NCBI RefSeq assembly: GCF_988242995.1
Contig: NZ_OZ547043.1
DNA: 64,000 nt
Direction: 5' to 3' (one strand)
The position numbers and the translations under genes are program-made. The stretch's first letter is position 1, and each line of letters begins with the position of its first letter. The notes beneath the pieces were generated by a model. It saw only the letters and a list, made by a program, of their open reading frames with translations. It was not told the origin of the DNA and did not search any database. Positions 1 to 20,865 of the stretch are shown one piece after another.

Positions 1-200
1 GTGCCAGTTATCGCTATAGTGGCGCTGGAGTCGGTTATCAGGTTGCCAGTGTGGTTGGCGGTGGATTTACACCTTTTATTGCCGCTGCACTCATCACTTA
101 CTTTGCCGGGAACTGGCATAGCGTCGCCATTTATTTGCTGGCTGGATGCCTGATTTCCGCAATGACCGCTTTGTTGATGAAAGACAGTCAACGCGCTTGA
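1..200 (+). CDS. shiA: 3' end of shikimate/MFS transporter gene (partial, start outside window)
   Basis: Frame ending at TGA 198..200 translates to ...AAALITYFAGNWHSVAIYLLAGCLISAMTALLMKDSQRA, a hydrophobic MFS C-terminus; position upstream of amn as in E. coli. Confidence 0.7.
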   Translation, partial: ASYRYSGAGVGYQVASVVGGGFTPFIAAALITYFAGNWHSVAIYLLAGCLISAMTALLMKDSQRA

Positions 201-301
201 TAGCCTGGCGAAGATCATCCGATCTTCGCCTTACACTTTTGTTTCACATTTCTGTGACATACTATCGGATGTGCGGTAATTGTATGGAACAGGAGACACA
301 C

Positions 302-1756
302 ATGAATAATAAGGGCTCCGGTCTGACCCCAGCTCAGGCACTGGATAAACTCGACGCGCTGTATGAGCAATCTGTAGTCGCATTACGCAACGCCATTGGC
401 AACTATATTACAAGTGGCGAATTACCTGATGAAAACGCCCGCAAACAAGGTCTTTTTGTCTATCCATCACTGACCGTAACCTGGGACGGTAGCACAACCA
501 ATCCCCCCAAAACGCGCGCATTTGGTCGCTTTACCCACGCAGGCAGCTACACCACCACGATTACTCGCCCTACTCTCTTTCGTTCGTATCTTAATGAACA
601 ACTTACGTTGCTGTATCAGGATTATGGTGCGCATATCTCTGTGCAACCCTCGCAGCATGAAATCCCCTATCCTTATGTCATCGATGGCTCTGAATTGACA
701 CTTGATCGCTCAATGAGCGCTGGGTTAACTCGCTACTTCCCGACAACAGAACTGGCGCAAATTGGCGATGAAACTGCAGACGGCATTTATCATCCAACTG
801 AATTCTCCCCGCTATCGCATTTTGATGCGCGCCGCGTCGATTTTTCCCTCGCACGGTTGCGCCATTATACCGGTACGCCAGTTGAACATTTTCAGCCGTT
901 CGTCTTGTTTACCAACTACACACGTTATGTGGATGAATTCGTTCGTTGGGGATGCAGCCAGATCCTCGATCCTGATAGTCCCTACATTGCCCTTTCTTGT
1001 GCTGGCGGGAACTGGATCACCGCCGAAACCGAAGCGCCAGAAGAAGCCATTTCCGACCTTGCATGGAAAAAACACCAGATGCCAGCATGGCATTTAATTA
1101 CCGCCGATGGTCAGGGTATTACTCTGGTGAATATTGGCGTGGGACCGTCCAATGCTAAAACCATCTGCGATCATCTGGCAGTGCTACGCCCGGATGTCTG
1201 GTTGATGATTGGTCACTGTGGCGGATTACGTGAAAGTCAGGCCATTGGCGATTATGTACTTGCACACGCTTATTTACGCGATGACCACGTTCTTGATGCG
1301 GTTCTGCCGCCCGATATTCCTATTCCGAGCATTGCTGAAGTGCAACGTGCGCTTTATGACGCCACCAAGCTGGTGAGTGGCAGGCCCGGTGAGGAAGTCA
1401 AACAGCGGCTACGTACAGGTACTGTGGTAACCACAGATGACAGGAACTGGGAATTACGTTACTCAGCTTCTGCACTTCGTTTTAACTTAAGCCGGGCCGT
1501 AGCAATTGATATGGAAAGTGCAACCATTGCCGCGCAAGGATATCGTTTCCGCGTGCCATACGGGACACTACTGTGTGTTTCAGATAAACCATTACATGGT
1601 GAGATTAAACTTCCCGGTCAGGCTAACCGTTTTTATGAAGGTGCTATTTCCGAACACCTGCAAATTGGCATTCGGGCGATCGATTTGCTGCGCGCAGAAG
1701 GCGACCGACTACATTCACGTAAATTACGAACCTTTAATGAGCCGCCGTTCCGATAG
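302..1756 (+). CDS. amn: AMP nucleosidase
   Basis: 484-aa product starting MNNKGSGLTPAQALDKLDALYEQ within ORF 146..1756; the longer N-terminal extension of the ORF is not supported. Confidence 0.9.
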   Translation: MNNKGSGLTPAQALDKLDALYEQSVVALRNAIGNYITSGELPDENARKQGLFVYPSLTVTWDGSTTNPPKTRAFGRFTHAGSYTTTITRPTLFRSYLNEQLTLLYQDYGAHISVQPSQHEIPYPYVIDGSELTLDRSMSAGLTRYFPTTELAQIGDETADGIYHPTEFSPLSHFDARRVDFSLARLRHYTGTPVEHFQPFVLFTNYTRYVDEFVRWGCSQILDPDSPYIALSCAGGNWITAETEAPEEAISDLAWKKHQMPAWHLITADGQGITLVNIGVGPSNAKTICDHLAVLRPDVWLMIGHCGGLRESQAIGDYVLAHAYLRDDHVLDAVLPPDIPIPSIAEVQRALYDATKLVSGRPGEEVKQRLRTGTVVTTDDRNWELRYSASALRFNLSRAVAIDMESATIAAQGYRFRVPYGTLLCVSDKPLHGEIKLPGQANRFYEGAISEHLQIGIRAIDLLRAEGDRLHSRKLRTFNEPPFR

Positions 1757-2098
1757 TAAGTTCTGAACCTTCTTATCAAAAATAGATGTGAAGGATTAAG
1801 TAAGACATCTGGCAAATAACCCGCAATAAACGCGGGCTGTTTGCTTCCTTGGGCGGATACGAGTTTTATTATCGTCTTAATGATTTCCACATATTAAAAG
1901 CAAGTATGCTTTCAAAACACAATTATAAAAAATCCCGCCAACAATATATGTTTTTATAAAAATAAATATATGATTATGGCTTTAGAATATTTTTATTTCT
2001 AATAGACGAGATTTTTCCTGTTATGATATAATATGCCGAATTAACACATGTTAACGATTTACCAGTAATGTAAATAAATTTTCGAGGAGATCATTCCA

Positions 2099-2815
2099 GT
2101 GGGACGTAAATGGGCCAATATTGTTGCTAAAAAAACGGCTAAAGACGGTGCAACGTCTAAAATTTATGCAAAATTCGGTGTAGAAATCTATGCTGCTGCT
2201 AAACAAGGTGAACCCGATCCAGAATTAAACACATCTTTAAAATTCGTTATTGAACGTGCAAAGCAGGCACAAGTTCCAAAGCACGTTATTGATAAAGCAA
2301 TTGATAAAGCCAAAGGCGGCGGAGATGAAACGTTCGTGCAGGGACGTTATGAAGGCTTTGGTCCTAATGGCTCAATGATTATCGCCGAGACATTGACTTC
2401 AAATGTTAACCGTACGATTGCTAACGTTCGCACAATTTTCAATAAAAAAGGCGGCAATATCGGAGCGGCAGGTTCTGTCAGCTATATGTTTGACAATACG
2501 GGTGTGATTGTATTTAAAGGATCAGACCCTGACCATATTTTTGAAATTTTACTTGAAGCTGAAGTTGATGTTCGTGATGTGACTGAAGAAGAAGGTAACA
2601 TTGTTATTTATACTGAACCTACTGACCTTCATAAAGGAATCGCGGCTCTAAAAGCATCTGGAATCACTGAGTTCTCAACAACAGAATTAGAAATGATTGC
2701 TCAATCTGAAGTTGAGCTTTCCCCAGAAGATTTAGAAATCTTTGAAGGGCTTGTTGATGCCCTTGAAGATGACGACGATGTACAAAAAGTTTATCATAAC
2801 GTCGCAAATCTCTAA
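2099..2815 (+). CDS. yeeN: YebC/PmpR-family probable transcriptional regulator
   Basis: 238 aa, GTG start preceded by [23 protein letters not shown]... typical YebC-family N-terminus. Confidence 0.9.
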
Positions 2816-2824
2816 TTATATTTT

Positions 2825-2860
2825 AAAGAAATCTGTCTTTATGGCAGATTTCTTTAATCT
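2825..2860 (+). terminator. putative hairpin terminator after yeeN
   Basis: Inverted repeat aaagaaatctg / cagatttcttt immediately after the yeeN stop. Confidence 0.4.
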
Positions 2861-3269
2861 CATAGAATCCTTATAAAAAATATAATGTTTAACTCATCAT
2901 ATTGCTTATAAAAAATCCCCGTCCCCAGAGAAATAATATTTATTAAAATGGCAGGTCTTCTTTTTCTGATTACCGAAGACAAAGTGGCAATTACGTATAG
3001 TTTCCCGATAAAGACGCGACAGCTACATCCCGCATAAGGCATTTTTCTCTTTATCTTTGTACGGTACTTCATGGAACAGAATTTTTGACCTTGTGAATCG
3101 TGATGTCTGTTGGGGAGGGGCAATTTGCTCACTGAAGCGTGAGACTCAATTAAGCGCACGAAACACAGAAATCAAAAAACCCGGTCACTTTTTTACAAGG
3201 TAACCGGGTAAAAATAATTTTTATTTTTTAACTGCTTTGAGACTCATAGAGATGTCTCAAAACTAAAAT

Positions 3270-3345
3270 TTGGCTCCTCTGACTGGACTCGAACCAGTGA
3301 CATACGGATTAACAGTCCGCCGTTCTACCGACTGAACTACAGAGG
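3270..3345 (-). tRNA. asnW: tRNA-Asn
   Basis: 76 nt, exact reverse complement of the tRNA-Asn sequence found at 5095..5170 and 7504..7579; ends CCA. Confidence 0.95.
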
Positions 3346-3446
3346 AATCGTGAGAACGAGGCGAATATTAGCGATGCCCACCCACAATGTCAAAGCCTGT
3401 TTTTTAAATTTGAAATCGTTTGCTGAAATAATCTGCATTTTGTCGT

Positions 3447-4934
3447 TTATTCCGACACAACTGGCTTTTTTTCACACTTTTGCGACTCGGATCGAGGGTA
3501 TTTCCATAGCCAACGTCCAGTAACCATTCGCCAGTAAAACAGCACGGCCCGCACAGCCCAGTCGGCAAACATTCCCATCCAGACACCAACCACACCCCAG
3601 CCAAGCATGATTCCCAGCACATAACCGACTACAACCCGACAACCCCACATGCTCAACATCGAAACCCACATGGCGTAACGGGCATCACGAGCACCTTTAA
3701 ATCCAGCGGGTAGCACCCATGAGGCGGACCAAATAGGCATAAATAAAGCATTTAGCCAAATCAGAATCACAACGACATGTTTAACCTGTGGATCCTGGGT
3801 GTAAAACGATGCCATAAGCCCGGCAAAGGGAGCCGTTAGCCAGGCGATGGCCGTTAATCCAAGAGTGGACAGCCAGAACACATGCCGCAACTGAATCTCT
3901 GCTTGCGCTATCTGCCCTACCCCCAACCTTCGGCCTGTAATGATCGTAGAAGCAGAGCCGAGCGCACTTCCGGGTAAGTTGATAAGAGCCGCAATTGAAA
4001 ACGCGATAAAATTTCCGGCAATAACACTGGTCCCCATTCCGGCAACGAACATTTGGGTTAATAACCGACCACTGGTAAATAACACTGATTCGACACTCGC
4101 TGGAATACCAATCCCCATGACTTCCCAGATAATGCTAAAATTCAGCGGTTTAAAATAGCTCTTTAACGAAATCCTTAGCGCAGGATTAAAACCTATCGCC
4201 AGCACCCACAAAATTGCAACTGCGCCAATATAACGAGAAATGGTTAAACCCAACCCAGCCCCGACAAATCCCAGTCCCGGCCAGGAGAAAAGGCCGTAAA
4301 TCAATATGCCGCTAATAATAATATTAAGAATATTCAGGCTACCGTTAATCAGTAGCGGTATTTTCGTATTCCCTGCACCACGAAGTGCCCCACTACCAAT
4401 CAAAGTGATGGCAGCTGCTGGATAACTGAGTACCGTCAGCTCCAGATAAGTCAACGCCAGTGCTTTAACTTCTGTCGTGGCATCACCCGCGACGAAATCA
4501 ATAATTTGTTCGCCAAAATGATGAATAAGCGTTGCCAACAGTACGGCAAACAACGTCATGATCACCAATGACTGCCGCGTCGCCACCCTCGCTCGTCGTC
4601 GATCCCGCTTACCGAGACTAAATGCCACAACGACAGTGGTACCAAGATCGATAGCAGCAAAAAAAGCCATAATGACCATATTGAAGCTGTCCGCCAATCC
4701 CACGCCGGCCATCGCATCTTTTCCCAGCCAGCTGACCAGAAAAGTGCTCAGGACACCCATCAACAGGACACAGGCATTCTCCATGAAGATAGGAACAGCA
4801 AGCGGGGTTATCTCGCGCCAGAACAACACTTTGTAGCTCTTGCGTTTAGCGTGCCAGCGAGTGCCGTGAACAACCTGGCGTAAAGCAGAGGAGATATTCA
4901 AAGCCGACCTTAATTGCAGAAAGTGAAACCACAT
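3447..4934 (-). CDS. yeeO: MATE-family efflux transporter (FMN/FAD exporter YeeO)
   Basis: ORF 3447..5087; start chosen at internal Met (MWFHFLQLRS...) giving about 495 aa; multi-pass membrane protein. Confidence 0.8.
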   Translation of the reverse strand: MWFHFLQLRSALNISSALRQVVHGTRWHAKRKSYKVLFWREITPLAVPIFMENACVLLMGVLSTFLVSWLGKDAMAGVGLADSFNMVIMAFFAAIDLGTTVVVAFSLGKRDRRRARVATRQSLVIMTLFAVLLATLIHHFGEQIIDFVAGDATTEVKALALTYLELTVLSYPAAAITLIGSGALRGAGNTKIPLLINGSLNILNIIISGILIYGLFSWPGLGFVGAGLGLTISRYIGAVAILWVLAIGFNPALRISLKSYFKPLNFSIIWEVMGIGIPASVESVLFTSGRLLTQMFVAGMGTSVIAGNFIAFSIAALINLPGSALGSASTIITGRRLGVGQIAQAEIQLRHVFWLSTLGLTAIAWLTAPFAGLMASFYTQDPQVKHVVVILIWLNALFMPIWSASWVLPAGFKGARDARYAMWVSMLSMWGCRVVVGYVLGIMLGWGVVGVWMGMFADWAVRAVLFYWRMVTGRWLWKYPRSESQKCEKKPVVSE

Positions 4935-5094
4935 TTCAAATAATGAGGGAGAATCAGCAAAGCTGCAAAGATTTTCGCCAACAAATTGTCTGCAAATGCA
5001 ACAAACTGTTGATAGAAACGGCAAACAGTTGGGGAATTTAAAAATCGGGTTTGACAAAAGATTTTTCGCCGTTAAGATGTGCCTCAACAGCGAT

Positions 5095-5170
5095 TCCTCT
5101 GTAGTTCAGTCGGTAGAACGGCGGACTGTTAATCCGTATGTCACTGGTTCGAGTCCAGTCAGAGGAGCCA
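5095..5170 (+). tRNA. asnU: tRNA-Asn
   Basis: TCCTCTGTAGTTCAGTCGGTAGAACGGCGGACTGTTAATCCGTATGTCACTGGTTCGAGTCCAGTCAGAGGAGCCA, GTT anticodon loop. Confidence 0.95.
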
Positions 5171-5180
5171 AATTTCTGAA

Positions 5181-5207
5181 AAGCCCGCTTTTATAGCGGG
5201 CTTTTTG
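5181..5207 (+). terminator. rho-independent terminator after asnU
   Basis: aagcccgct ... agcgggctt hairpin followed by TTTTT. Confidence 0.6.
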
Positions 5208-6158
5208 CTATATCTGATAATCAATTTCCTCTTCACTGTTTTCCATCACCTGCCGCTTGATATCCTCAACTGAAAGTCCTGCATTACAAAGTTCCAGAAA
5301 GCGCCAGACATAGTTACGCTGAAGTTGCCCTCGCTTGAGTCCCAACCAGACAGTATTAGCATCGAAAAGATGCCGCGTATCCAGGCGGATTAAATTCTTT
5401 TCCTCTTGTTCACCGCTGGATTGTTCGGCAACTAATCCGATCCCCAGCCCAAGAGCAACATAGGTTTTAATGACATCAGAATCCTGCGCACTTAATACAA
5501 TATCTGCCAGCAAACCTTTGCGGGCAAATGCGTCATCAATACGTGAGCGCCCCGTAATCCCCTGTCGGTAAGTGATTAACGGCCACTTCGCTATTGATTC
5601 CAGCGTCAATGGTGTAATTTGCGTCAAGGGATGATCGAGTGGAACAAGCAAACTATGGTGCCAACGAAACCACGGGAAGGCGACGAGCTGCGGGTCATTA
5701 CTCAAACGCTCGCTGGCGATACCAATATCAGCTTCGCCATTTTGCAACAACGTCGCAATTTCCTGTGGCGTCCCCTGGATTAGCTCGAGCCGAACCTCCG
5801 GGAAAAGTTCGCGAAAAGCTTTAATGACCCCTGGCAAGCTATAACGCGCCTGAGTATGCGTCGTTGCAATAGTGAGAACGCCAGACGTATCGTTGGTAAA
5901 CAGGTCTGCAAGCCGACGAACATTACTGGCTTCATTCAGAATACGTTCTGCAATGACCAGTAATGCTTTGCCCGGTTCAGTCATGCCCAGCAGTCGCTTA
6001 CCTCGTCGAACAAATATTTCGATGCCAAGTTCATCCTCCAGTTCCCGAATATGACGGCTGACGCCTGACTGTGAGGTAAAAAGCATATTCGCAACCTCTG
6101 TCAGGTTGTAATCCTGACGTGCAGCTTCGCGGATTATCTTTAGTTGTTGGAAATTCAC
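5208..6158 (-). CDS. cbl: LysR-family regulator Cbl (CysB-like)
   Basis: 316 aa; N-terminal LysR HTH MNFQQLKIIREAARQDYNLTEVANMLFTSQSGVSRHIRELE. Confidence 0.9.
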   Translation of the reverse strand: MNFQQLKIIREAARQDYNLTEVANMLFTSQSGVSRHIRELEDELGIEIFVRRGKRLLGMTEPGKALLVIAERILNEASNVRRLADLFTNDTSGVLTIATTHTQARYSLPGVIKAFRELFPEVRLELIQGTPQEIATLLQNGEADIGIASERLSNDPQLVAFPWFRWHHSLLVPLDHPLTQITPLTLESIAKWPLITYRQGITGRSRIDDAFARKGLLADIVLSAQDSDVIKTYVALGLGIGLVAEQSSGEQEEKNLIRLDTRHLFDANTVWLGLKRGQLQRNYVWRFLELCNAGLSVEDIKRQVMENSEEEIDYQI

Positions 6159-6259
6159 GGTAAACTCCGGGCAGTTCAGATATCCCGTTATTGTTAAAGT
6201 CTAACGCCCGGCATAACAAATAATAAAAACCCGCATCTTATTCCATCCCGATATAACGC

Positions 6260-7177
6260 TTAGCTCACCAATTGCCACTGCCTTTTTTCCATCACTGGAG
6301 AACTAATCACTGACATTAACAACTCTTTCACTGCCTGTGCCTGTGGCGATAAGTTCGCTCTGGCGGGTAAATTTAATGACAAAGAGAGACTCATTGAAGG
6401 CGTGGTAATGCGTGACATCCACCCATTTACTGCGCCACATAACGAACGCGCGGCCGATTCGGGTAATACTGCAACGCCCATGCCGCTGGCAATCGCTGCG
6501 GTAAGCGTGGCAATAGACTCAATTTCACCAATAACTTTTGCCGTGAGTCGCCGTAGGGAAAAAGCCTCATCAACACGAAGTCTAACAGCGCTGTAATCAC
6601 TGGGGAGAAAGAGGTTCATTTTCGCAATAGCATTCACATCAACGCTTTGCCCCGGGCAATCTTGAGTTCCTACCAGAAAAAGATCTTCTTTCAGCAAAGC
6701 CTGACTGGATACACCAGCCACAGGGGAATGCTCATAAATCACCGCCATATCGAGTTGGTGATTTATCAATTTTTCGTTAAGCACTGCACCACTATTTTCA
6801 TGAAGATAGATAACGATCTCCGGAAATTCAGCGCGAACCGCCTGTAATAAGGGCATGGTGATGGATGACGCAGCGGTTCCTGGTGCAAAGCCAATCGAGA
6901 CTTGCCCCGATAATGCCTGACCAACGTTATGCACCGCCAGTTGGGCCTGTTCACACTGACGTAAAATGGCCCGCGCATGGGTATAGAGAATTTTTCCGGC
7001 GTCTGTTGGCGTAACGCCCCGCTTTGTACGGATCAAAAGTTGTTGATTTAACTCACCTTCCAGTGTGGCAACCTGCTGGCTGAGCGCTGGTTGTGCGATA
7101 TGCAATACTTCAGCAGCCTGGGTCAGGCTACCAATATCTACAATTTTTACGAAGTATTTCAGGCGTCTGAAGTTCAT
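6260..7177 (-). CDS. nac: LysR-family nitrogen assimilation regulator Nac
   Basis: ORF 6260..7207; start placed at MNFRRLKYFVKIVDIGSLTQAAEVLHIAQPALSQQV (305 aa). Confidence 0.9.
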   Translation of the reverse strand: MNFRRLKYFVKIVDIGSLTQAAEVLHIAQPALSQQVATLEGELNQQLLIRTKRGVTPTDAGKILYTHARAILRQCEQAQLAVHNVGQALSGQVSIGFAPGTAASSITMPLLQAVRAEFPEIVIYLHENSGAVLNEKLINHQLDMAVIYEHSPVAGVSSQALLKEDLFLVGTQDCPGQSVDVNAIAKMNLFLPSDYSAVRLRVDEAFSLRRLTAKVIGEIESIATLTAAIASGMGVAVLPESAARSLCGAVNGWMSRITTPSMSLSLSLNLPARANLSPQAQAVKELLMSVISSPVMEKRQWQLVS

Positions 7178-7503
7178 GTTGCCTCCGGTTTTTAAGAATC
7201 GGCCCAAGTGCCGCCATTACTTACAACCAGAAAGCAAGATGCTTGCCAGTTCTATTTTGGCGTTGATGCGCAAGCTAACCAACTGTCAAATAAAAGATTA
7301 TGATAGATTCGTCATTGGCCCTTTTTATCAGCAGTCGCATTCACCTGCCCTATAAAAGGAGGGTATGCACCACGATGGTTCATTACACAATAAGATTGAA
7401 AGCTCACCACTTTGTTGAAATTGGCAGCAAACAAACAAAAAAATACATTTCACCCTTTGACATCACCATGCACTGCCATTAATATGCGCCCCGTTCACAC
7501 GAT

Positions 7504-7579
7504 TCCTCTGTAGTTCAGTCGGTAGAACGGCGGACTGTTAATCCGTATGTCACTGGTTCGAGTCCAGTCAGAGGAGCCA
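7504..7579 (+). tRNA. asnV: tRNA-Asn
   Basis: 76 nt identical to asnU copy. Confidence 0.95.
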
Positions 7580-7587
7580 AATTCAAA

Positions 7588-7615
7588 AAAAGCCTGCTTT
7601 CGAGCAGGCTTTTTA
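7588..7615 (+). terminator. rho-independent terminator after asnV
   Basis: aaagcctgct / agcaggcttt hairpin followed by T-run. Confidence 0.6.
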
Positions 7616-7635
7616 CTTTCTAATTACCAACGCTC

Positions 7636-8568
7636 TTAAAACATCTGTCTTGAACCAGAACTAATTTGCACAGGCATTCCCGATCGACGTTGCAACGCAG
7701 CATTTGCGCGATTTACATCAACTTCTTGCCCGTTGATAAACGCCCGCAAAGATGGGGTTACCGGCAATGGCACTTTTCGGTCAGACTCATATTCTGCACG
7801 ATTGCGCGACAGCGGCTCATGAACTTCCAGCCACTTTGAACCATCCGGTTCCGTTGTGTATTTCACTGGCTGATCAATAATTTGTACACGAGTGCCTACA
7901 GGAACATTATCAAACAGATATTTGATATCGTCATTGCGCAGACGAATACAGCCCTGACTTACCCGGAGCCCAATACCAAAATTGGCATTGGTACCGTGGA
8001 TGGCATACAACCTGCCAATATAAATCGCGTACAGCCCCATGGGGTTATCGGGCCCCGCAGGAACAAATGCGGGCAAACTCTCCCCTCGTTTCGCATATTC
8101 GCGCCGGGTGTTCGGCGTTGGCGTCCAGGTTGGTGCTTCTTGTTTACGTTCAACGGTAGTCACCCAGTTACGCGGGGTTTCTCGCCCAGCCTGGCCGATA
8201 CCAATAGGAAAGACTTCCACTGTGTTACTGTCTGGCGGATAGTAATAAAGACGCATTTCAGCGACGTTAACCACAATCCCTTTACGAACAGTGGCGGGCA
8301 AAATCAGTTGCTGCGGAATGGTGAGTTGTGAGCCAGGCTTCGGCAAAAAAACATCAGCGCCCGGATTCGCTTCCAGCATATTACTTAACCCTTGCCCGTA
8401 TTGTGCGGCAAAAGTCTCCAGCGGCTGAGTATTGTGATCAGGAACAGTTACAGTAAGCGACTGCCCCACTAAACGGCTACCCTCTGGAGGTAATGGATAA
8501 GTTACCGCCAGGCTATTTTGGCTGGCAAAAAGCAGAGCAAATGAGCAAAGAATATTTACACGACGCAT
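7636..8568 (-). CDS. ldtA: L,D-transpeptidase (YkuD/ErfK family)
   Basis: 310 aa with signal peptide ([21 protein letters not shown]) and YkuD-type catalytic region (HGT...GC). Confidence 0.85.
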
Positions 8569-8632
8569 CATGTCCCTTTCCTAAGTCGCGAATACTATCC
8601 GATAAGTATAGCTTTTATCAGACTTTTCGTTT

Positions 8633-9712
8633 TTAGCTGTTCAAATCAGAAGTCGTATTCCCCGGTAGAACAATATTACTGGCAGCAAGTTCGCCCATGT
8701 TGTTGTATATCGCACAAGCAGCTTCGATGATGGGCATCGCCAGAGCTGCACCACTCCCCTCACCTAAACGCATATCCATATTGAGATAAGGCTCCAGCCC
8801 CAAATGCGAGAGCGCTATACGCGCGCCTTTTTCTACCGACAAGTGAGAAGGAATGAGATACGGTTTGATTGCAGGAGACATCTGGCAGGCTGCGAGCGCA
8901 GCAGCATAAGAAAGAAATCCATCCAGCAACACGGGTAAACCGCAGGAAGCAGCACCTAACATCACTCCAGCTATTCCGACCAAATCAAATCCACCCACTT
9001 TTGCCAGGACATCAATACCATCCTGAGGATTTGGTTGATTCAACGTAATCGCCCGACGCACAACATCAATTTTATTAGCCAGTTTATCTGTCGGCAGGTT
9101 TGCGCCAATCCCAACCACTTCTTCAGGATCCCGGCCAGTGATTGTGCTGACTATTGCTGCTGCCGGTGTCGTGTTTGCCATCCCCAGTTCACCTACACCA
9201 AACAGCGTGACACCGTTTTTTGCCAGCTCCTGCGTATAACATATGACGTCCAAAAGCAACTTTTCAGCCTGACGGCGACTCATTGCCGGAGCTGAAGCAA
9301 TATTGCCGCTACCTCGTGCGACACGCATGTTGATAAGCCTGGGGATAGGCTCAGCAGTATCAATACCAACATCAATTACGTGGACGTTAGCGCCCGCTTG
9401 TTCTGCCAGCACACACACGCCGGTTGTTCCACGGGTCATATTTTCAGCCTGTATGGCTGTCACTTCTTTTGGAGAAATAGCGACCCCTTCCTCCCAGACG
9501 CCGTGATCGGCACACATAACCAGTACCGCTTTTTTGCCCACATGCGGTATGCCATTCAACCCCGGCATTCCTGCCAGTTGTATGGCAAGCGCCTCCAGCT
9601 TTCCCAGGCTACCAACAGGTTTGAGTAACCCGTCAATATGCCGTTGTGCACGCGACATAGCGGCAGAATCGATGGCTGGGATCGTATTCAGTAAATCGGC
9701 AAGTATTTGCAT
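8633..9712 (-). CDS. cobT: nicotinate-nucleotide--dimethylbenzimidazole phosphoribosyltransferase
   Basis: 359 aa, [32 protein letters not shown]... Confidence 0.9.
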
Positions 9713-9723
9713 GTCACGTCTCT

Positions 9724-10467
9724 TTATAGCAGTGCCAGCAGGAAGACCAGTTCACCAAGCTCTATGGCTGCTCCCAGCGTATCGCCCGTTTGCCCGCCCA
9801 GCGTACGTTTGAGAAGCTGACCGAGGATGAAAATCGCCACCATCGTCACCACCATAGCAGCCACACCATGCATACCCGGCAATAATACGGCAGCAAAAAT
9901 AGCGGCTAAGCCGAGTGTGACGCAGGTTTGTCGCCCATCAATTTTGCCAATGAACACATTGCCAAGCCCTTCTTCCCGCGCATAACGATGACGATACATC
10001 AATAATGCGGCAGTCCCGCGGCTGACCGCACATGCTGCCGCCAGCGATGCAAGGATCGATTCGCCACGCAGAGCCAACTCGCTTAACACCAGAATCTTTG
10101 CCAGTACCACAAAAATCAATGCCAGACCGCCGTGGGTGCCTAAACGGCTATCACGCATGATTTCCAACATGCGATCGCGGCTACGTGCAGAAAATACGCC
10201 ATCACAGGTATCAGCGAGGCCGTCCAGATGGAATCCCCCGGTCATCAGCACCAGCACAAGCACGCTAAACAGTGCCGCCAGTGGTGCGCCACACCATGCC
10301 TGCAGCACCATGAAGACCAGCCCGCTAATCGCGCCAAGCAATAATCCAATCAAAGGAAAAGTAATAATACCGCGAGAATAATGCTCGAAATCCAGTCCCT
10401 GGGACCAGCGACGCGGTACAGGCAGACGCGTAATAAATGAGAGCATCGCCCAAAATAATTTACTCAT
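9724..10467 (-). CDS. cobS: cobalamin (5'-phosphate) synthase
   Basis: ORF 9724..10503; start at [18 protein letters not shown]; polytopic membrane protein; overlaps cobU stop. Confidence 0.85.
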
Positions 10468-11009: not shown

Positions 11010-12779
11010 ACCGACTCCTGATTCAAATGTATGATGGTATTCATTGAACAGAACAATGGATCCCCCACCGTTGCTGACCGCAAAACATTTACGCGATTAA
11101 TACTGCGCGTAATATAATTAAAAATCCAGCATTCTCAATCCATTACGAAATAAGATGGCATTACGGAATAGCCAGACTTTCTCGTGTTAACGTCCGACAA
11201 AATGCGTCATTGACAGCGGTTTCTGTGGATTGACACATTTCATTCAGATAATGAATTAATGCTACTGCCGGACCAACCAGCAAACGGGCATTGTGTTCTG
11301 AAATCCAGGCTATTGATTCAACGTCAGCGACAGATCTGCGCTGTAAAAGAACTTGTAAAACAACGCAATAGAATTATCCGGAATGGTGGCGACTATGCAC
11401 TAGAACACCACAATTTCGCTCTCTCGGTAAGGCACTGTCACAGCATTCAACAGAATGTGACTTGCCAGATTTATTAGCGCCACCAGATGTTTAACCGGGT
11501 AACCACGACCCAGTCGGGGATATATTCCATCTTCTCGCTGACATCATCAAGAATAAAAAGGTTTATCACACTCAGAGCAACGTTCTTCAGCAGGCGGGAT
11601 AATTCTTCAACATTTAGAAGATGTGTTATTAAAGGCATACAAACTGGACGTATTGTATTTTCTTTTGGTGGTTGACCTAAGGTAGCAGTTTATCCTGATG
11701 CGCTGAGATTTCTGTAATATCTACGTCAACATTCTCCTCGAATAGAAAATGCAGCCCCGGCAAGTGATTCACATTTTTTAACAAAACGTTGTTAGCGTGC
11801 CATTTTCAGAAGCTCTCCAAGAAAGCGAATTCTTTTCTCAAATTCTGCATTCTCAGACACAGCTTTCTACTCCATGGCAATGGCCCAAATACGAAGTTGC
11901 TCAGGATCATTAGTGGTGCTGAGAAGTTAAATAACCATGCGGAGTACCACTCGTCATCACGTATTTATATATCATGAAGCTATTGTTGTGTTTTGTACAT
12001 CAGTAGATGTATTCTGATATACTCCTTTTGCTAGACATAACCTTTCACCTGCTTGCAAAGCTTCTGTGTTCTGACATTGCCAAATTGTTGCAATTCTGTA
12101 TCCAGCCTTCTTTCAGTCATAGCTTCGGGCCGCGATAAGACTCACTGATCTGACCCTGATTCCTCTTGCAGACTTTATAGACCAATTAAAATGCAGTTTC
12201 TGCAGGTCAACGTCTGACCATCATTGTCATCACTCTGGCCATTAGAGTAACCTTCTGCATTCATCCTTTTGTAAAAAGTTTATAGACTGGCCCCCTGAAT
12301 CTCCAGACAACCAATATCACTTAAATAAGTGATAGTCCTGATACAAGTTTTTAGAGTAGTCATTAGTGAACAGATAATTGTTAACTTAGAACCAGTAAAA
12401 TGCAAACGACGCACCACGCTGGGAAAATCGCTGCTATTCAGCAGAGTTTTGTACCGAGAATTGTGGCCAGCCACTTATTGCTCTCGCGTAAGCAGGTATC
12501 CCCATCGTTTACCAGTCCAGCACATCTTGTGGTCAGGCAGAAGAAGAGCAAACTGTTACTGGACTCACTGCATGCATGGTGGAGAAAAATGCCACGCTAT
12601 CCAAAAATCCAGACTGGGAGAATGGTTCAGCTGTGTACTGAATCAGTGGGGCGCACTCTGTTATTACAGTGTTGACGGTCAGGCGGAGGCAGACATAATG
12701 CCGCGGAAAAAGCCCTTTGTGCCATCTGTCTCGGAAATAAAAACTCTTATGACCTTTGTCAAATATTGAGCCCAAAAAG

Positions 12780-14186
12780 ACCTTACGCAGCTCCGGGAGC
12801 TTCGTTATATCGCGGATTAAAGAACCTGAAACAGTCAGACTGTATCTTGGATTTTACAAACTCTTATTCGGGGATTTTAGCCCCATGACGATTTACGCAG
12901 TGAGCTGGCCTCTTTCTATATGCAGGTATTGGCGCATTCTGACCTCCTGAATTCTTTTACGAGGATCACTCATTCCGTGTCTGACTGCTTCAGGGTTTAA
13001 TTTTGCTTCTGCTGACTGAATGATGATTGGGCAGCAAGTGCAATATCCCACATAAATCCAGTCAACTCACGAGCCACCGCCGTAATGGCTACTTGTGATT
13101 TTTTCCCTTTTGCTGTCAGACTTCGGTAACGAGAACACAATCGTTGTTGAGCTTTCCATGCAATATCTTTGGAATATTGTGTTACAGAATCCGGTCGGTA
13201 ATATATAAGCCATGCACCAACTTTTGCAGGTGTACGATAAGACCAGGCGGCTTCGTAAAGCAGACGTCTCAGTTCGCTGTTTCCAACTTTTGTTATTCCC
13301 CTGGGACGAATGCTGTTTCCACTGGAATATTCCCCTGGAACCAGTCCCAGAAAAGCCATGAGTTGTTTGGGACTGGAAAATCGTGAAAAATCACCCAGTT
13401 CAGCAACCAGGGTTATTGCGGTTAGCTGACCAACACCTTTAAGGGCCTGTAACTGGCAGACCAGATTGCACAGAGACCACTCAGGTAACAGGCGGGATAT
13501 TTCCTGGTCGAGTTGAAGTATGCGATCTTCAATCTGCTCCAGACTCTGACAATAGTGTTGAAAAGCAATCTGTTGAGATGGCTGACTAAATGATTGATTG
13601 GCTAACCAGGTTCGATGTTTGCCGGTCCAGTGCTTCCCTGCATAACGTTTGTCTGTTCGCAATAGCATGCTCAGAATTCGCTGTCGGGCAACTCTGCTGT
13701 CTCGTTTAGCTGCTGCACGGGCTCTGATTAGATCCCGCATAGCTTCATGAGTCAGGTCAGGGATCCAGACAGGGGTAAGTTCACCAGCCCGCAGTAACCT
13801 GGCAAGAGAAATTGCGTCCCGATGATCATTTTTGATTCTGTCTGTCGGTGATTTTGGTATCCGGGAAGGGGCAATAACCTGGCATTTTATATTCATCGCT
13901 GTGAGTTGATGATATAGCCCAAAACCACAGGGGCCAGCCTCATAGCAGGAAAGAATGTTTCCGTAAAGTCCCTGCAATTTCTGAAATAATCGACGTACAG
14001 CCTGGGCTTCGTTGTTAATCGTACCATAATAACGAACTTCGCCAAGCCGTTCAGGTGCAGCAATAGCAACCGCCAACGTTTCTTTATGTACATCCAGCCC
14101 GATGTAAGCTGCAATATTTTCCGAATGCATAATGACCTCCTCTGGAATATCCCACCAATGCTATAGTGAGTATATAAAGGTCATAC
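12780..14186 (-). mobile_element. IS110-family insertion sequence (boundaries approximate, 3' end not determinable by eye)
   Basis: Transposase 12997..14130; upstream end abuts a truncated IS66 tnpC remnant at about 14187; no terminal inverted repeats expected for this family. Confidence 0.4.
12997..14130 (-). CDS. IS110-family transposase (DEDD/RuvC-like)
   Basis: 377 aa; N-terminal YIGLDVHKETLAVAI motif typical of IS110-family transposases; RBS GAGGAGG upstream. Confidence 0.8.
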   Translation of the reverse strand: MHSENIAAYIGLDVHKETLAVAIAAPERLGEVRYYGTINNEAQAVRRLFQKLQGLYGNILSCYEAGPCGFGLYHQLTAMNIKCQVIAPSRIPKSPTDRIKNDHRDAISLARLLRAGELTPVWIPDLTHEAMRDLIRARAAAKRDSRVARQRILSMLLRTDKRYAGKHWTGKHRTWLANQSFSQPSQQIAFQHYCQSLEQIEDRILQLDQEISRLLPEWSLCNLVCQLQALKGVGQLTAITLVAELGDFSRFSSPKQLMAFLGLVPGEYSSGNSIRPRGITKVGNSELRRLLYEAAWSYRTPAKVGAWLIYYRPDSVTQYSKDIAWKAQQRLCSRYRSLTAKGKKSQVAITAVARELTGFMWDIALAAQSSFSQQKQN

Positions 14187-14189
14187 CAT

Positions 14190-14412
14190 CTTTATGTTCT
14201 TCGGCGGCGAGCGCAGTGCACTGTTGTATGGGCTTATCGGCACCTGCCGTCTGAACGACATTGATCCGGAAGCGTATCTGCGCCATATCCTGAGCGTACT
14301 GCCGGAATAACCTTCCAACCGTATTGATGAACTCCTGCCATGGAACGTAGTTCTCACCAATAAATAAGCATCAATATGATTCTCCATTAACGCTTACCTT
14401 TTCTCAGGCTAT
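14190..14412 (+). mobile_element. truncated IS66-family 3' end (tnpC C-terminal remnant plus terminal repeat), diverged
   Basis: Translates to FFGGERSALLYGLIGTCRLNDIDPEAYLRHILSVLPE and PSNRIDELLPWNVVLTNK, matching the C-terminus of TnpC at 23289..24902; ends with degenerate IS66 terminal repeat ...cgcttac. Confidence 0.6.
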
Positions 14413-14505
14413 TTTTGCTTTTTTTTGCTTTTCCCCGCCACTTTATGGTGATTATCACATCAATATACATCGATAGATATTAACGTAACTGCAGTGAGGT
14501 GAAGC

Positions 14506-15720
14506 ATGAAATTTGAACGCCATCATGAAATATTGAAACGACTCAGTAAATTCGGTTCTGTAAAAGTATCCGATCTGTCCAATAGCCTCAATGTAACGAA
14601 AGAAACTATTCGTTCAGATCTTAATGAACTTGCCAGGCTTGGCTATCTGACTCGATGTCATGGCGGTGCTTTTATCGTCCTAGACTCGCTTGATACTATT
14701 GCGAAAAATGAAATCGCTTATGCGCTTGAAAATTATGATACAGCCCAGGGAATAAAAAAAGGCCACTCAACTATGAAAAGTCAAGTATGCGTTATTGGTT
14801 CGTTTAATGTTGATATCATCAGTTATTTGCCGAGGCTTCCCACTATCGGAGAATCGCTTCTGGCAAGTAATTTTATATTTTCACCGGGGGGAAAAGACTG
14901 TAACCAGGCGCTGGCAGCAAGCTTTGCCGATACTGATGTTTATTTCATAACAAAAGTAGGTACAGATCACTTTAGTGATTATGCGATCAACTTTATGAAT
15001 TCGTCTAAGATTTATAAAAGTATAATTTATCAAACGAAAGAAACGCAAACCGAAACTGCCACGATCCTTGTTAATGAAGGTACTGGCGATAATGTTATTG
15101 CGATCTATCCCGGTGCCAACATGACAATGTCGCCCGATGAAATAACTATTCAGAAAGAAGCGATTATTAATTCTGATGTCATACTTCTGCAGCTCGAAAC
15201 AAATTATACCGCTCTGCAACAAGCGATCACATTGGCGCAAAAAAACAGTATCCCGGTCATTATTAACCCGGCACCCTATAATGATATCGTCAACGAACTT
15301 ATTCAGGATGTTGATTATATCACCCCCAATGAAACAGAAGCTGGTTTACTGTCCGGCATAGACGTACACGATCTTGAATCAGCTAAACGAGCTGCAGAAG
15401 CTATCCACAATAAAGGGGTAAAAAACACGGTTATCACGCTCGGTAGCAAGGGCTCGCTCGCATTTGATGGCAAAAAATTCATTCATTCGCCAGCGTTTCC
15501 AGCGGTCGTTAAAAATACGGCAGGAGCCGGGGATGCGTTTAACGGCTCTCTGGCATCAGGACTTGCGAAAGGAAAATCACTGGAATCAGCACTGTGTTAT
15601 GCCAGCGCCTTTGCATCCCTAGCGGTGGAGACAAGCAATGCTTCCGACATGCCTGAACATGAATCTGTGATACATCGAATTCAGAGTATACATTATCAGC
15701 AAACTATTTTTACGCATTAA
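14506..15720 (+). CDS. DeoR-type HTH domain fused to PfkB/ribokinase-family carbohydrate kinase
   Basis: 404 aa; N-terminal DeoR-like HTH (VKVSDLSNSLNVTKETIRSDLNELARLGYLTRCHGGA) then PfkB body with GAGDAF signature near C-terminus. Confidence 0.7.
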   Translation: MKFERHHEILKRLSKFGSVKVSDLSNSLNVTKETIRSDLNELARLGYLTRCHGGAFIVLDSLDTIAKNEIAYALENYDTAQGIKKGHSTMKSQVCVIGSFNVDIISYLPRLPTIGESLLASNFIFSPGGKDCNQALAASFADTDVYFITKVGTDHFSDYAINFMNSSKIYKSIIYQTKETQTETATILVNEGTGDNVIAIYPGANMTMSPDEITIQKEAIINSDVILLQLETNYTALQQAITLAQKNSIPVIINPAPYNDIVNELIQDVDYITPNETEAGLLSGIDVHDLESAKRAAEAIHNKGVKNTVITLGSKGSLAFDGKKFIHSPAFPAVVKNTAGAGDAFNGSLASGLAKGKSLESALCYASAFASLAVETSNASDMPEHESVIHRIQSIHYQQTIFTH

Positions 15721-15733
15721 GAAGGGACAGAGA

Positions 15734-16492
15734 ATGAATAACACCAAAAAATCACTAAAAGTGCTCTTTATTGGGGAATCCTGGCATATTCATATGATTC
15801 ATTCAAAAGGATATGACAGTTTTACCTCAAGTAAATATGAAGAAGGTGCGACCTGGTTACTCCAGTGTCTGAAAAATAGTCAGGTAGATGTCACCTATAT
15901 GCCAGCACATACGGTACAAATTGCCTTCCCTGAAGATGTGGCACAGTTAGAACAATATGATGCCATCGTTATTAGTGATATTGGTAGTAATACTTTCCTG
16001 CTACAAAATGATACTTTTTATCAGCTTCGCATAAAACCAAACGCTCTCGAACTGATTAAAGAATATGTGAATAACGGTGGTGGGTTATTGATGATTGGCG
16101 GCTATCTCTCATTCATGGGAATTGAAGCAAAAGCCAATTATAAAAATACAGTTCTGGCTGATGTGCTCCCGGTTACGATGTTAGATGGTGACGATCGTGT
16201 CGAAAAACCAGAGGGTGTTATTGCACAGCCATCACAACCTGAACATCCAGTTATTAAAGGGTTCTCTGAATATCCTTTTTTCCTAGGTTATAACCGGGCG
16301 ATCGCTAAAGAAAATGCTGAGGTGGTATTAACAATAAACAACGCTCCATTACTGGTCTTTGGTAACTATCACAACGGGAAAATAGCCTGCTTTATGAGTG
16401 ACTGTTCACCGCACTGGGGTACACAGCAGTTTATGTCCTGGCCGTTCTATACCGCGTTGTGGGTAAATATACTGACTCATATTGCAAGATAA
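15734..16492 (+). CDS. hypothetical protein, possibly class-I glutamine amidotransferase-like fold
   Basis: 252 aa ORF immediately downstream of the kinase gene (14-nt gap); fold assignment is pattern-based only. Confidence 0.5.
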   Translation: MNNTKKSLKVLFIGESWHIHMIHSKGYDSFTSSKYEEGATWLLQCLKNSQVDVTYMPAHTVQIAFPEDVAQLEQYDAIVISDIGSNTFLLQNDTFYQLRIKPNALELIKEYVNNGGGLLMIGGYLSFMGIEAKANYKNTVLADVLPVTMLDGDDRVEKPEGVIAQPSQPEHPVIKGFSEYPFFLGYNRAIAKENAEVVLTINNAPLLVFGNYHNGKIACFMSDCSPHWGTQQFMSWPFYTALWVNILTHIAR

Positions 16493-16548
16493 TAATAATA
16501 ATGGGGTAACTCCAGTTACTCCATTTACTATAATAGAAGGATTGATGT

Positions 16549-17514
16549 ATGAAAAAGAATAAGTACTCAACTCCCTTATGGATGCTTGCCACGATTCTTG
16601 CGGGTATGCTCTCCCCTATGCAATCAGCGGTGAATGGTCAATTAGGTCACTGGTTACAGGATGGTAATGCATGCGCAGTTATCTCCTTTGCCAGTGGTTT
16701 AGTCGTGATGTTTTTTATTATTATGGCGCGAAAAGAAACCCGGCAACAATTTGCGGCAATTCCTTCTCTGATTAAAAACCGAAAAGTTCCTCTCTGGAAC
16801 TGGTTTGCCGGTCTCTGTGGAGCGATGGTGGTATTTTCTGAAGGCGCATCAGCCAGCGCACTCGGGGTCGCAACGTTTCAAACCGCACTGATCTCCGCGC
16901 TATTGCTGTCTGGTTTACTTTGCGATCGCTTTGGTATCGGTGTCGACGAGAAAAAATACTTTACCCCTTATCGCATCATCGGTGCATTATTTGCGGTTAT
17001 TGCTACGATTTTTGTTGTGTCACCTCAGTGGCATTCTACCTCTTTCATCTTACTTGCCATTCTTCCGTTCTTAGCTGGTTTGCTTGCAGGATGGCAGCCC
17101 GCTGGAAATGCAAAAGTAGCTGAAGCTACGGGATCCATGCTGGTTTCAATCACCTAGAATTTCATCGTTGGATTTTGTGTTTTAGGCACAGCGCTAGCTA
17201 TTCGTGTCGCATTAGGGCACGTCACTGTTCAATTACCAGATGTCTGGTGGATGTATCTTGGCGGCCCGCTTGGACTAATGTCTATCGGTTTAATGGCCAT
17301 TTTGGTCAGAGGTCTGGGGTTACTGATGCTGGGGGTTGCTTCAACGGCGGGCCAGTTACTGGGATCAGTATTGATTGACGTATTAATTCCATCGCTGGGC
17401 AATAGCGTTTATCTGGTCACGATCATCGGAACACTGTTTGCACTGGTCGGTGCAATTGTTACCACTATTCCGGAATACAGAACCTCGAAAACAATGAAGA
17501 AAATGGAGGTATAA
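16549..17514 (+). pseudogene. DMT/DUF606-type membrane transporter with single in-frame amber stop (TAG at 17155..17157)
   Basis: ORFs 16549..17157 and 17251..17514 are in the same frame; only one TAG interrupts a continuous about 320-codon hydrophobic reading frame. Confidence 0.5.
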
Positions 17515-17516
17515 TC

Positions 17517-18551
17517 ATGAAAGATTATCTACAAACTGTGACGGGCCCCGTCGCCCGTGAAGATATGGGGCTAACACTTCCTCATGAACATCTGTTCAAC
17601 GATCTTTCCTCTGTTGTGGATGCTCCTTGCTATCCTTTTTCACAACGGCTTGTTGATAAAAAAGTCACGGCAGAAATCCAGTGGGCATTAAAACACGATC
17701 CTTATTGCTGCGCTGATAATATGGACCGCAAACCTATTGAAGATGTGATCTTCGAAATTAATAACTTTATCTCGCTCGGTGGTCGCACCATTGTTGATGC
17801 CACAGGGTCTGAGTCTATCGGACGAGATGCGCAGGCATTACGAGAAGTCGCATTAAAAACAGGTCTGAATATTGTTGCTTCCTCCGGTCCCTACCTGGAA
17901 AAATTTGAAAGCCAGAGAATTCATAAAACGGTTGATGAACTGGCGACAACGATCGATAAAGAATTGAATCAAGGGATTGGCGATACGGATATTCGTGCCG
18001 GAATGATCGGTGAAATAGGTGTTTCACCGACATTTACCGAAGCCGAGCATAACAGCTTGCGGGCTGCCTCGCTGGCACAGATTAACAATCCTCATGTGGC
18101 GATGAATATTCACATGCCGGGCTGGCTTCGTCGCGGTGATGAAGTACTCGACATTGTGTTAGGTGAAATGGGCGTCTCGCCAAATAAAGTCTCTCTCGCA
18201 CACTCGGATCCGTCAGGAAAAGACGTGGCGTATCAGCGGAAAATGCTTGATAAAGGTGTCTGGCTGGAATTCGACATGATTGGCCTAGACATTACCTTCC
18301 CGAAAGAGGGAATAGCGCCAGGGGTGCAGGAGACTGCCGATGCCGTCGCTCATCTCATTGAGTTGGGTTACGCCGATCAGCTTGTTCTCAGCCACGATGT
18401 CTTCCTTAAACAAATGTGGGCTAAAAATGGCGGTAATGGCTGGGGATTTGTTCCAGATGTTTTTCTGGCCTATCTGGCGGAGCGCGGCGTCGATAAAACG
18501 ATCCTCAAAAAACTCTGTATCGATAATCCCGGACGATTATTGACCGCATAA
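17517..18551 (+). CDS. phosphotriesterase-related protein (PHP/amidohydrolase family)
   Basis: 344 aa; N-terminal GLTLPHEHL metal-binding motif typical of phosphotriesterase homology proteins. Confidence 0.8.
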   Translation: MKDYLQTVTGPVAREDMGLTLPHEHLFNDLSSVVDAPCYPFSQRLVDKKVTAEIQWALKHDPYCCADNMDRKPIEDVIFEINNFISLGGRTIVDATGSESIGRDAQALREVALKTGLNIVASSGPYLEKFESQRIHKTVDELATTIDKELNQGIGDTDIRAGMIGEIGVSPTFTEAEHNSLRAASLAQINNPHVAMNIHMPGWLRRGDEVLDIVLGEMGVSPNKVSLAHSDPSGKDVAYQRKMLDKGVWLEFDMIGLDITFPKEGIAPGVQETADAVAHLIELGYADQLVLSHDVFLKQMWAKNGGNGWGFVPDVFLAYLAERGVDKTILKKLCIDNPGRLLTA

Positions 18552-18595
18552 AACCATTATCCCCCGGCACATTGCGCCGGGGGATGTCAATTAAT

Positions 18596-18957
18596 ACCCC
18601 GCCGTTAAATCATCCACCAAGCGCGAGTCGGATGCGCCGTACAACTCACCATCCGACCCAACCATAATGCTTTGCGTGCTGCCCATCGCCTCATTCAGCG
18701 CCACTTTCTGACCTTTTGCATCCAGCAGCTTGAGCGTATCCGGACTAAACCCTTTTCAACACGCAGCTCGTCCGGCAACCACTGATAGTGGAAACGAGGC
18801 GCATTGGTCGCTTCGGCAACATTCATTCCACAATTGATGCTGTTCACCACCATTTGCAGCACGGTAGTGATGATCCAGCTACCGGTAACAAAGTGAGTAC
18901 ATAAAGGCCATACTGTCACGAACAGTGCAAAAGTGGCTCTTCCGCAACCTGGGTGAA
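18596..18957 (-). pseudogene. 3' remnant of a gamma-glutamyltranspeptidase gene
   Basis: Minus-strand translation gives ...NAPRFHYQWLPDELRVEKG and, after a frameshift, GFSPDTLKLLDAKGQKVALNEAMGSTQSIMVGSDGELYGASDSR, a GGT C-terminus. Confidence 0.6.
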
Positions 18958-20600: not shown

Positions 20601-20865
20601 TCCTTGTTCGCCAGAAAGTTTCATCCATTTTCTTCCACCCAGGTTGCGGAAGAACCACTTTTCATCCGTCGTTGACAGATGTGAAGTATGCGGGAGAAAA
20701 AGTGAATATCTAACTGTAATAACTCAGACCGGTACGAGTACTCGGAACGTCTACAATCATTCAGGGCAAAGTGCTAAAATTTCTCTATCCCGGGATGCCC
20801 CTACCAACGCAGCACTCCCGGAGATATCATTACAGCTCTGCAACTGATTTCCGCGACTGAACCGC

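Follow-up and report, generated by a model that had tools for sequence, protein, structure and literature searches.

The 64,000-nucleotide (nt) stretch analysed here, from contig NZ_OZ547043.1 of RefSeq assembly GCF_988242995.1 and hereafter called the window, contains exactly three tRNA genes, all of which ARAGORN assigns to tRNA-Asn with anticodon GTT. These genes, asnW (3271..3346, minus strand), asnU (5095..5170, plus strand) and asnV (7504..7579, plus strand), are mutually identical 76-nt sequences, each scoring 72.6 bits against the Rfam tRNA family RF00005 (gathering score 29), each carrying gtt as its anticodon at position 34 and encoding its own 3' CCA (the sequence ends ...GGAGCCA), and each matching its K-12 counterpart exactly. 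Three exact copies of this length cannot arise by chance, and a few flanking bases are identical too, so that the exact match reaches 85 nt between asnW and asnU, 86 nt between asnW and asnV and 84 nt between asnU and asnV. In what follows we document the anatomy of this cluster, the frequencies of its rearranged forms across Escherichia coli, the location of their breakpoints at the tRNA genes and the recurrence of the events. Taken together, this is with high probability a standard cluster that supplies tRNA-Asn from several gene copies, and whose sequence identity serves at the same time as a substrate for homologous recombination.

Between asnW and asnU lies yeeO (3447..4934, minus strand), which encodes a 495-residue MATE efflux transporter (NCBIfam NF007562, 909 bits against a cut-off of 465). 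The interval between asnU and asnV holds two regulator genes on the minus strand, cbl of the LysR/CysB family (5208..6158; NF009324, 684 bits against 491) and nac, for nitrogen assimilation control (6260..7177; NF008410, 600 bits against 309). On the left the block is flanked by yeeN (2099..2815, plus strand), a YebC/PmpR family regulator (NF009044, 351 bits against 196), and on the right by ldtA, or erfK (7636..8571, minus strand), an L,D-transpeptidase (NF007563, 693 bits against 517). All five proteins exceed their cut-offs, which are set at the equivalog or subfamily level, and the RefSeq annotation of near-identical, collinear genomes agrees. Gene content, order and strands are those of K-12 MG1655, a synteny that confirms asnW, asnU and asnV as the right names. 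A sequence-only reading of the same DNA had described three identical 76-nt tRNA-Asn genes in mixed orientation interleaved with yeeO, cbl and nac, a description borne out by ARAGORN, Rfam, NCBIfam and the K-12 synteny; it had placed the start of the cluster at 3270, one base off, as the block, counted between the outermost tRNA bases (3271-7579), is 4,309 base pairs (bp) long.

Each tRNA-Asn gene is predicted to be a separate transcription unit, with its own putative sigma-70-type promoter and a downstream hairpin. A promoter scan returned one promoter-like site with 10/12 matches ahead of each gene: TTGACA-17-TAATAT for asnW (3365..3393, minus strand, within the invertible segment and in a conserved alignment block), TTGACA-16-TAAGAT for asnU (5051..5078, plus strand, within the segment that an exchange between asnW and asnU would invert) and TTGACA-17-TAATAT for asnV (7457..7485, plus strand). 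These matches end 16-19 nt upstream of the tRNAs, and the three upstream regions have in common the two promoter boxes (-35 and -10) and, just before the tRNA, a GC-rich stretch, with little else alike. Transcription of asnW and asnU is divergent and leads away from yeeO, so that the yeeO block contains the predicted promoters of both.

Downstream, a stable hairpin begins 7 nt from each gene. Those of asnU and asnV are alike and both carry T-runs: the first, GC-rich and with a predicted energy of -19.5 kcal/mol, lies between the convergent asnU and cbl (5178..5206) and is by alignment a sequence relative of the second, a bidirectional terminator-like hairpin of -17.2 kcal/mol found by terminator scans of both strands and by folding between the convergent asnV and ldtA (7587..7614). 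Unlike these, the asnW hairpin (3234..3263, minus strand; -14.7 kcal/mol by ViennaRNA, with alignment) has no clear T-run. Upstream of nac, at 7234..7248 on the minus strand, the sequence itself offers a candidate sigma-54-type motif, TGGCAAGCATCTTGC, a match to the consensus TGGCAC-N5-TTGC only. All four tRNA-Asn genes of the species have previously been treated as expressed operons (PMC1183518), and a dosage effect of tRNA-Asn genes has been reported and left unexplained (PMC7648144).

tRNA genes of this kind are also integration sites for genomic islands, an aspect that, like the inverted pair asnW/asnV, was absent from the sequence-only reading. All three sites are empty in the window, because no partial, att-like tRNA copy (16-30 nt) of at least 16 nt is present in the window and no integrase adjoins any of the three tRNAs, whose 3' ends face yeeN, cbl and ldtA; the window thus has neither the partial direct repeat of a tRNA nor the integrase of an occupied site. 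GC skew on the plus strand is negative across the backbone parts of the window, consistent with published work that places asnW on the leading strand and asnU, asnV and asnT on the lagging strand (PMC1183518).

To place the locus in the species, 5,426 complete E. coli genomes were surveyed. A 5.9-kb query (window 2800-8700) matches 5,424 of them, and 4,860 of the matching genomes are collinear over at least 80% of its length. The order asnW-yeeO-asnU-cbl-nac-asnV is therefore the species norm, and the cluster holds three of the four tRNA-Asn(GUU) genes of E. coli. The locus had been taken for a known feature of the E. coli backbone and is exactly that, a textbook arrangement about which nothing known is changed. 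Among the sampled rows, non-collinear matches stop exactly at a tRNA 3' end, which indicates islands at asnW or asnV. For the yeeO segment of the window, the closest genomes are H7 and mip270_04, both without a single-nucleotide polymorphism (SNP). The annotation of O157:H7 ECP19-198 (fetched locus 942-2429) lists yeeO as a pseudogene that contains an internal stop.

Rearranged forms were sought with synthetic junction queries of 976 nt, each consisting of the tRNA between the two 450-nt flanks expected after recombination; at any single place a standard genome can cover no more than about 54-59% of the query, and coverage of at least 80% was taken to mark a recombinant. By this measure the commonest variant is the asnW x asnV inversion, in which the whole 4.3-kb block is flipped (265 genomes). 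The asnW x asnU inversion, which flips yeeO, is represented by 34 genomes for its first junction and 32 for the reciprocal one, and the asnU x asnV deletion, which removes cbl, nac and one tRNA, by 35 matches, 34 of them clean. The reciprocal product of the last exchange, a tandem duplication of cbl-nac, was found by junction query in none of the 5,426 genomes. Natural recombinants with breakpoints in the repeats thus exist for every pair of copies (34/32, 265 and 34 genomes). The sequence-only reading had proposed that asnW and asnU could invert yeeO and that asnU and asnV could delete cbl-nac; the first proposal now has its junctions in 34 and 32 genomes and the confirmation of five fetched loci, and the second a clean yeeO-tRNA-ldtA junction in 34 genomes.

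The fetched loci show what these junctions represent. In O157:H16 Santai, PigCaeca_1, KL53, PSJ-36 and LD27-1, yeeO has changed strand and the tRNAs on either side of it are intact. Nissle 1917 carries the fully inverted block, in the order yeeN, tRNA(-), nac(+), cbl(+), tRNA(-), yeeO(+), tRNA(+), followed by an integrase and the clb genes, and 2016C-3878, Esc20 and AH20K059 show the deletion order tRNA(-), yeeO(-), tRNA(+), ldtA. The outer breakpoints fall at tRNA genes in all twelve fetched rearranged genomes except SL112. Apart from SL112, the fetched rearranged genomes align over the full length of the yeeO segment (1,748 nt) and, if they have it, of the cbl-nac segment (2,333 nt), as far as the tRNAs, with slightly short alignments for cbl-nac in SE15 (2,316/2,333 nt) and for yeeO in 2016C-3878 (1,745/1,748 nt), which places the breakpoints in or at the tRNA genes.

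Two candidates were set aside on inspection. SL112 was dropped from the deletion count: it keeps both tRNAs and a 150-bp remnant of cbl, and is not the product of a tRNA-tRNA exchange. SE15 (fetched locus 2074-7526) was the sole match to an asnW/asnV inversion without an island and is not a simple inversion: its yeeO-asnU-cbl-nac block is inverted and its right end is island-free, and asnW with a 922-bp 3' fragment of yeeO is kept in place while a second copy is inverted, amounting to an inverted partial duplication.

Other irregular loci were seen alongside these. KL53 (fetched locus 1672-9940) combines the yeeO flip with an integrase island beside the left tRNA, and its yeeN is disrupted by an insertion sequence (IS), inverted and located downstream of asnV, which points to a larger rearrangement among asn tRNA genes. 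In GPEC1222 (fetched locus 1-6000), genes for an AAA ATPase, an HNH endonuclease and a YobI-family NTPase replace the asnW-yeeO-asnU side up to cbl and asnU is not annotated; the locus resembles a defence-type island that has displaced part of the backbone. Sequence of nac and tRNA-Asn also occurs in three places on NZ_CP126949.1, a record labelled as a 145-kb plasmid of the strain APEC E14033 (about 5778-6353), where it could be chromosomal DNA captured by the plasmid or an artefact of assembly.

Assemblies classically go wrong at repeats, and the variant arrangements might on that ground be put down to assembly errors. We find this barely credible: the repeat measures only 76-86 bp, shorter than ordinary reads, all searched genomes are of 'complete genome' level, and the variants recur in many independent assemblies from different laboratories. 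The asnW/asnV inversion has moreover been confirmed by PCR (PMC6458436).

The genomes with an inverted yeeO fall into five classes of identity to the window (99.1, 98.6, 98.5, 98.2 and 97.1%), so that this inversion is present in at least five haplotype backgrounds. PSJ-36, which is inverted, and K-12, which is standard, have 0 SNPs between them in the yeeO segment (1,748 nt) and in the left flank, and 1 SNP each in cbl-nac and in the right flank, as against 12-20 SNPs in the yeeO segment between PSJ-36 and the other inverted genomes. For the yeeO segment of LD27-1, the nearest relative is M7424, again a genome of standard orientation. The proximity of PSJ-36 to K-12 and of LD27-1 to M7424 argues that the inversion arose repeatedly, and the SNP counts are decisive for at least one case.

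The deletion occurs in three haplotypes among its 34 genomes, 30 of which share one. This common haplotype includes MRY15-117, MRY15-131 and CREC-544, its three typed members, all of which belong to sequence type (ST) 457 (PMC5430464, PMC9860340). Esc20 carries YeeO, LdtA and CobT proteins identical to those of SCU-313, a genome of standard orientation, and its deletion is therefore a separate event. SCU-313 is also close to Nissle, with its inverted block: the two differ by 4 and 2 SNPs in the two inner segments.

The inversion of the whole block is already published, being described and linked to the pks (colibactin) island in three reports (PMC8209727, PMC8461471, PMC6458436). Wami et al. 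(2021) regard a yeeO-tRNA(Asn)-cbl-gltC inversion as the step that fixed the pks island (PMC8461471), and an mSphere study from 2019 reports that the asnW/asnV inversion arises in UTI89 cultures, where it was validated by PCR, was independent of Fim recombinase overexpression and was described as possibly common and dynamic (PMC6458436). From this known event the inversion of yeeO alone and the loss of cbl-nac follow as direct corollaries; no mention of either was found in the passages retrieved by term search or in further literature searches, which is not proof of novelty.

Could the integrases of the islands themselves have made the rearrangements? P4-like tyrosine integrases of the islands that target tRNA-Asn (pks, the high-pathogenicity island, HPI, and their kin) could in principle recombine the attachment (att) core at the 3' end of one asn tRNA gene with the identical core of another, and so invert or delete what lies between. 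Such integrases do target these same tRNAs, and islands occupy asnW-, asnV- and asnT-side sites across strains; among the fetched genomes, Nissle, H7, 2016C-3878 and KL53 have integrase islands at the 3' end of one or other asn tRNA. A query running from the region upstream of asnW through the tRNA into the Nissle integrase matched 367 genomes, of which 102 lie in the 80-90% identity band, suggesting other, related integrases; this leaves 265 pks-type integrase junctions, a number equal to that of the asnW/asnV inversions. Auvray et al. (2021) saw the inverted orientation in pks-positive B2 strains only and suggested a tie to pks acquisition (PMC8209727), and UTI89, in which the inversion is dynamic, has pks at asnV (PMC6458436, PMC8209727).

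The two other rearrangements speak differently. Inversions between asnW and asnU and deletions between asnU and asnV are found in PSJ-36, Santai, PigCaeca_1, LD27-1, Esc20 and AH20K059, none of which has an annotated integrase within about 3-6 kb of the tRNAs, although an integrase elsewhere, for example at asnT, is possible. Recombination between two full attB-type sites is, furthermore, not the usual reaction of such enzymes, and the association with pks-type junctions may reflect a single ancestral event inherited in ST73/ST95-type lineages. On balance we judge an integrase origin of the rearrangements, the main rival account, to be unlikely.

By annotation only, related island content was noted at different sites: an 'integrase domain-containing protein' and an RHS core protein lie on the yeeJ/asnT side in mip270_04 (locus 1-6738) and beside asnV in H7 (12944-20788), and 2016C-3878 (fetched locus 1244-4465) has a pseudogenised tyrosine integrase and an 'integrase domain-containing protein' beside asnW. 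Such a distribution fits a role of these tRNAs as interchangeable attachment sites.

Crossover by RecA-type homologous recombination, and not by an integrase, is most likely, and is favoured by the location of breakpoints at the repeats, by recurrence and by the lack of a nearby annotated integrase. The main role of the cluster would be to supply tRNA-Asn from multiple gene copies, and the 84-86 bp of exact identity between copies would act as short substrates for homologous recombination. Crossing-over within an inverted pair, asnW/asnU or asnW/asnV, would flip the DNA between its members, and crossing-over within the direct pair asnU/asnV would delete cbl, nac and one tRNA copy. In an inversion, the promoters of the end tRNAs would move with the block while their terminators stay outside, so that each position would regain a full promoter-tRNA-terminator unit. 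The outer tRNAs would also keep their orientation relative to replication, making the inversions structurally silent: the asnW/asnU inversion changes the strand of yeeO alone, and the asnW/asnV inversion that of yeeO, asnU, cbl and nac. Such structural neutrality may explain why inversion variants persist. With the deletion a genome loses two regulators, neither of them essential, and a quarter of its four tRNA-Asn copies; it is viable. Finally, the identical tRNA 3' ends would provide interchangeable attachment sites for islands with P4-like integrases, such as pks, HPI and others.

There are caveats, and several points weigh against this account. Since any crossover is hidden within the identical 84-86 bp, homologous recombination and integrase action at an att core in the tRNA 3' end are inseparable by sequence. 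For RecA-dependent exchange to be efficient, 84-86 bp is a short stretch, which implies low rates. The equality of the two counts of 265, matched as numbers and not as individual genomes, and the published restriction of the inversion to pks-positive strains fit an integrase- or island-linked origin of the asnW/asnV inversion. Three of the fetched genomes are not simple tRNA-tRNA exchanges, namely SE15 (duplicated yeeO fragment), KL53 (larger rearrangement) and SL112 (internal deletion), and the genome counts are tool tallies at a coverage of at least 80%, not the result of genome-by-genome inspection.

Recurrent inversion with promoter-like sites inside the invertible block, and the detection of the asnW/asnV inversion within a single culture (PMC6458436), also recall a programmed switch of the phase-variation type, in which orientation would control the expression of yeeO, of cbl/nac or of the tRNAs. 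This is very improbable. Neither in nor beside the block is there a recombinase gene in the window, as a switch of the fimS or hin type would have nearby, and yeeO keeps its upstream region in either orientation. What forms the inverted repeats is a pair of functional tRNA genes and not a set of dedicated recombination sites, and identical promoter-gene-terminator units are rebuilt in both orientations, so that nothing is switched on or off; one orientation is, moreover, common to 90% of genomes.

Homologous recombination between tRNA copies, if it is the source of these variants, means that 84-86 bp of identity suffices for recurrent rearrangement in nature. To what was known, the analysis adds the frequencies of all simple recombination outcomes, the recurrence of the yeeO-only flip and a haplotype without cbl and nac that includes ST457 strains. 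About 0.6% of genomes, mostly of this one haplotype, are without Nac and Cbl, which matters when the regulation of nitrogen and sulfur starvation is extended from K-12 to other strains. ST457, a lineage with multidrug resistance whose genomes here come from human, livestock, pet and wastewater samples, would be a natural double knockout of Nac (nitrogen limitation) and Cbl (sulfonate-sulfur) if the deletion is fixed in the lineage. The literature searched yielded no paper that brings ST457 together with nac, cbl or asnV. On this reading the yeeO-only flip and the cbl-nac deletion would be recurrent natural polymorphisms, and the loss of Nac and Cbl, if fixed in ST457, could be adaptive there and no neutral accident, a proposition that we regard as quite unlikely. 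There is also a practical consequence for nomenclature: the colibactin (pks) and yersiniabactin (HPI) islands integrate at these identical tRNA genes, and as 'asnW' and 'asnV' swap places upon inversion, the orientation of the block is needed to name an insertion site.

The rest of the window offers several further observations. Relative to the otherwise collinear mip270_04, there is a 1.4-kb insertion downstream of cobU (12751-14190) that encodes an IS110-family transposase (open reading frame (ORF) 12997-14130, minus strand; 280 bits against a cut-off of 140). A 25-kb IS-rich stretch (18031-43093), likewise absent from mip270_04, occupies the position of the K-12 CP4-44-type element and contains an ISL3 transposase (19203-20582) and IS66-family transposases (23289-24902 and 28422-29990). 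Within it, six co-oriented genes (32289-39615, plus strand) encode an unknown protein of 387 amino acids (aa), a small GTPase (303 aa), a CrfC/dynamin-like protein (798 aa; 558 bits, under the cut-off of 1146), an unknown protein (301 aa), a patatin-like phospholipase (356 aa) and an unknown protein (198 aa). PADLOC returned weak matches only (LeoBC, phospholipase effector), and the cluster may be an uncharacterised defence-type module. GC skew becomes positive at 36-40 kb. The small RNA STnc240 (52786-52860, minus strand; 68 bits) adjoins ORF 52906-53835, which corresponds to yeeY in the collinear mip270_04, and a histidine operon leader (55600-55723, plus strand; 130 bits) precedes a run of co-oriented ORFs that we take to be the his operon.

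Compared with known systems, the cluster is closest to its counterpart in K-12 MG1655, yeeN-asnW-yeeO-asnU-cbl-nac-asnV-ldtA at about 44 min, which has the same genes, order, strands and spacing and identical tRNAs, the segments being 94-99% identical with strain-level SNPs only. The published pks-linked inversion of B2 strains concerns this very block of 4,309 bp, with the identical tRNA genes at its ends, and is reproduced here in Nissle 1917, whereas the window has the standard, uninverted and island-free form. In the HPI/pks attachment-site system, islands with tyrosine integrases abut these tRNA 3' ends in related genomes, and the window shows the same sites unoccupied. As a recombination system, the cluster resembles the rrn operons and IS copies, which give rise to chromosomal inversions and deletions through homologous recombination between repeats. 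The logic would be the same, with inverted copies yielding inversions and direct copies deletions; the repeats of rrn and IS systems measure kilobases as against 84-86 bp here, so that events at the tRNA-Asn genes would be rare, and the block that they rearrange is small, at 1.7-4.2 kb.

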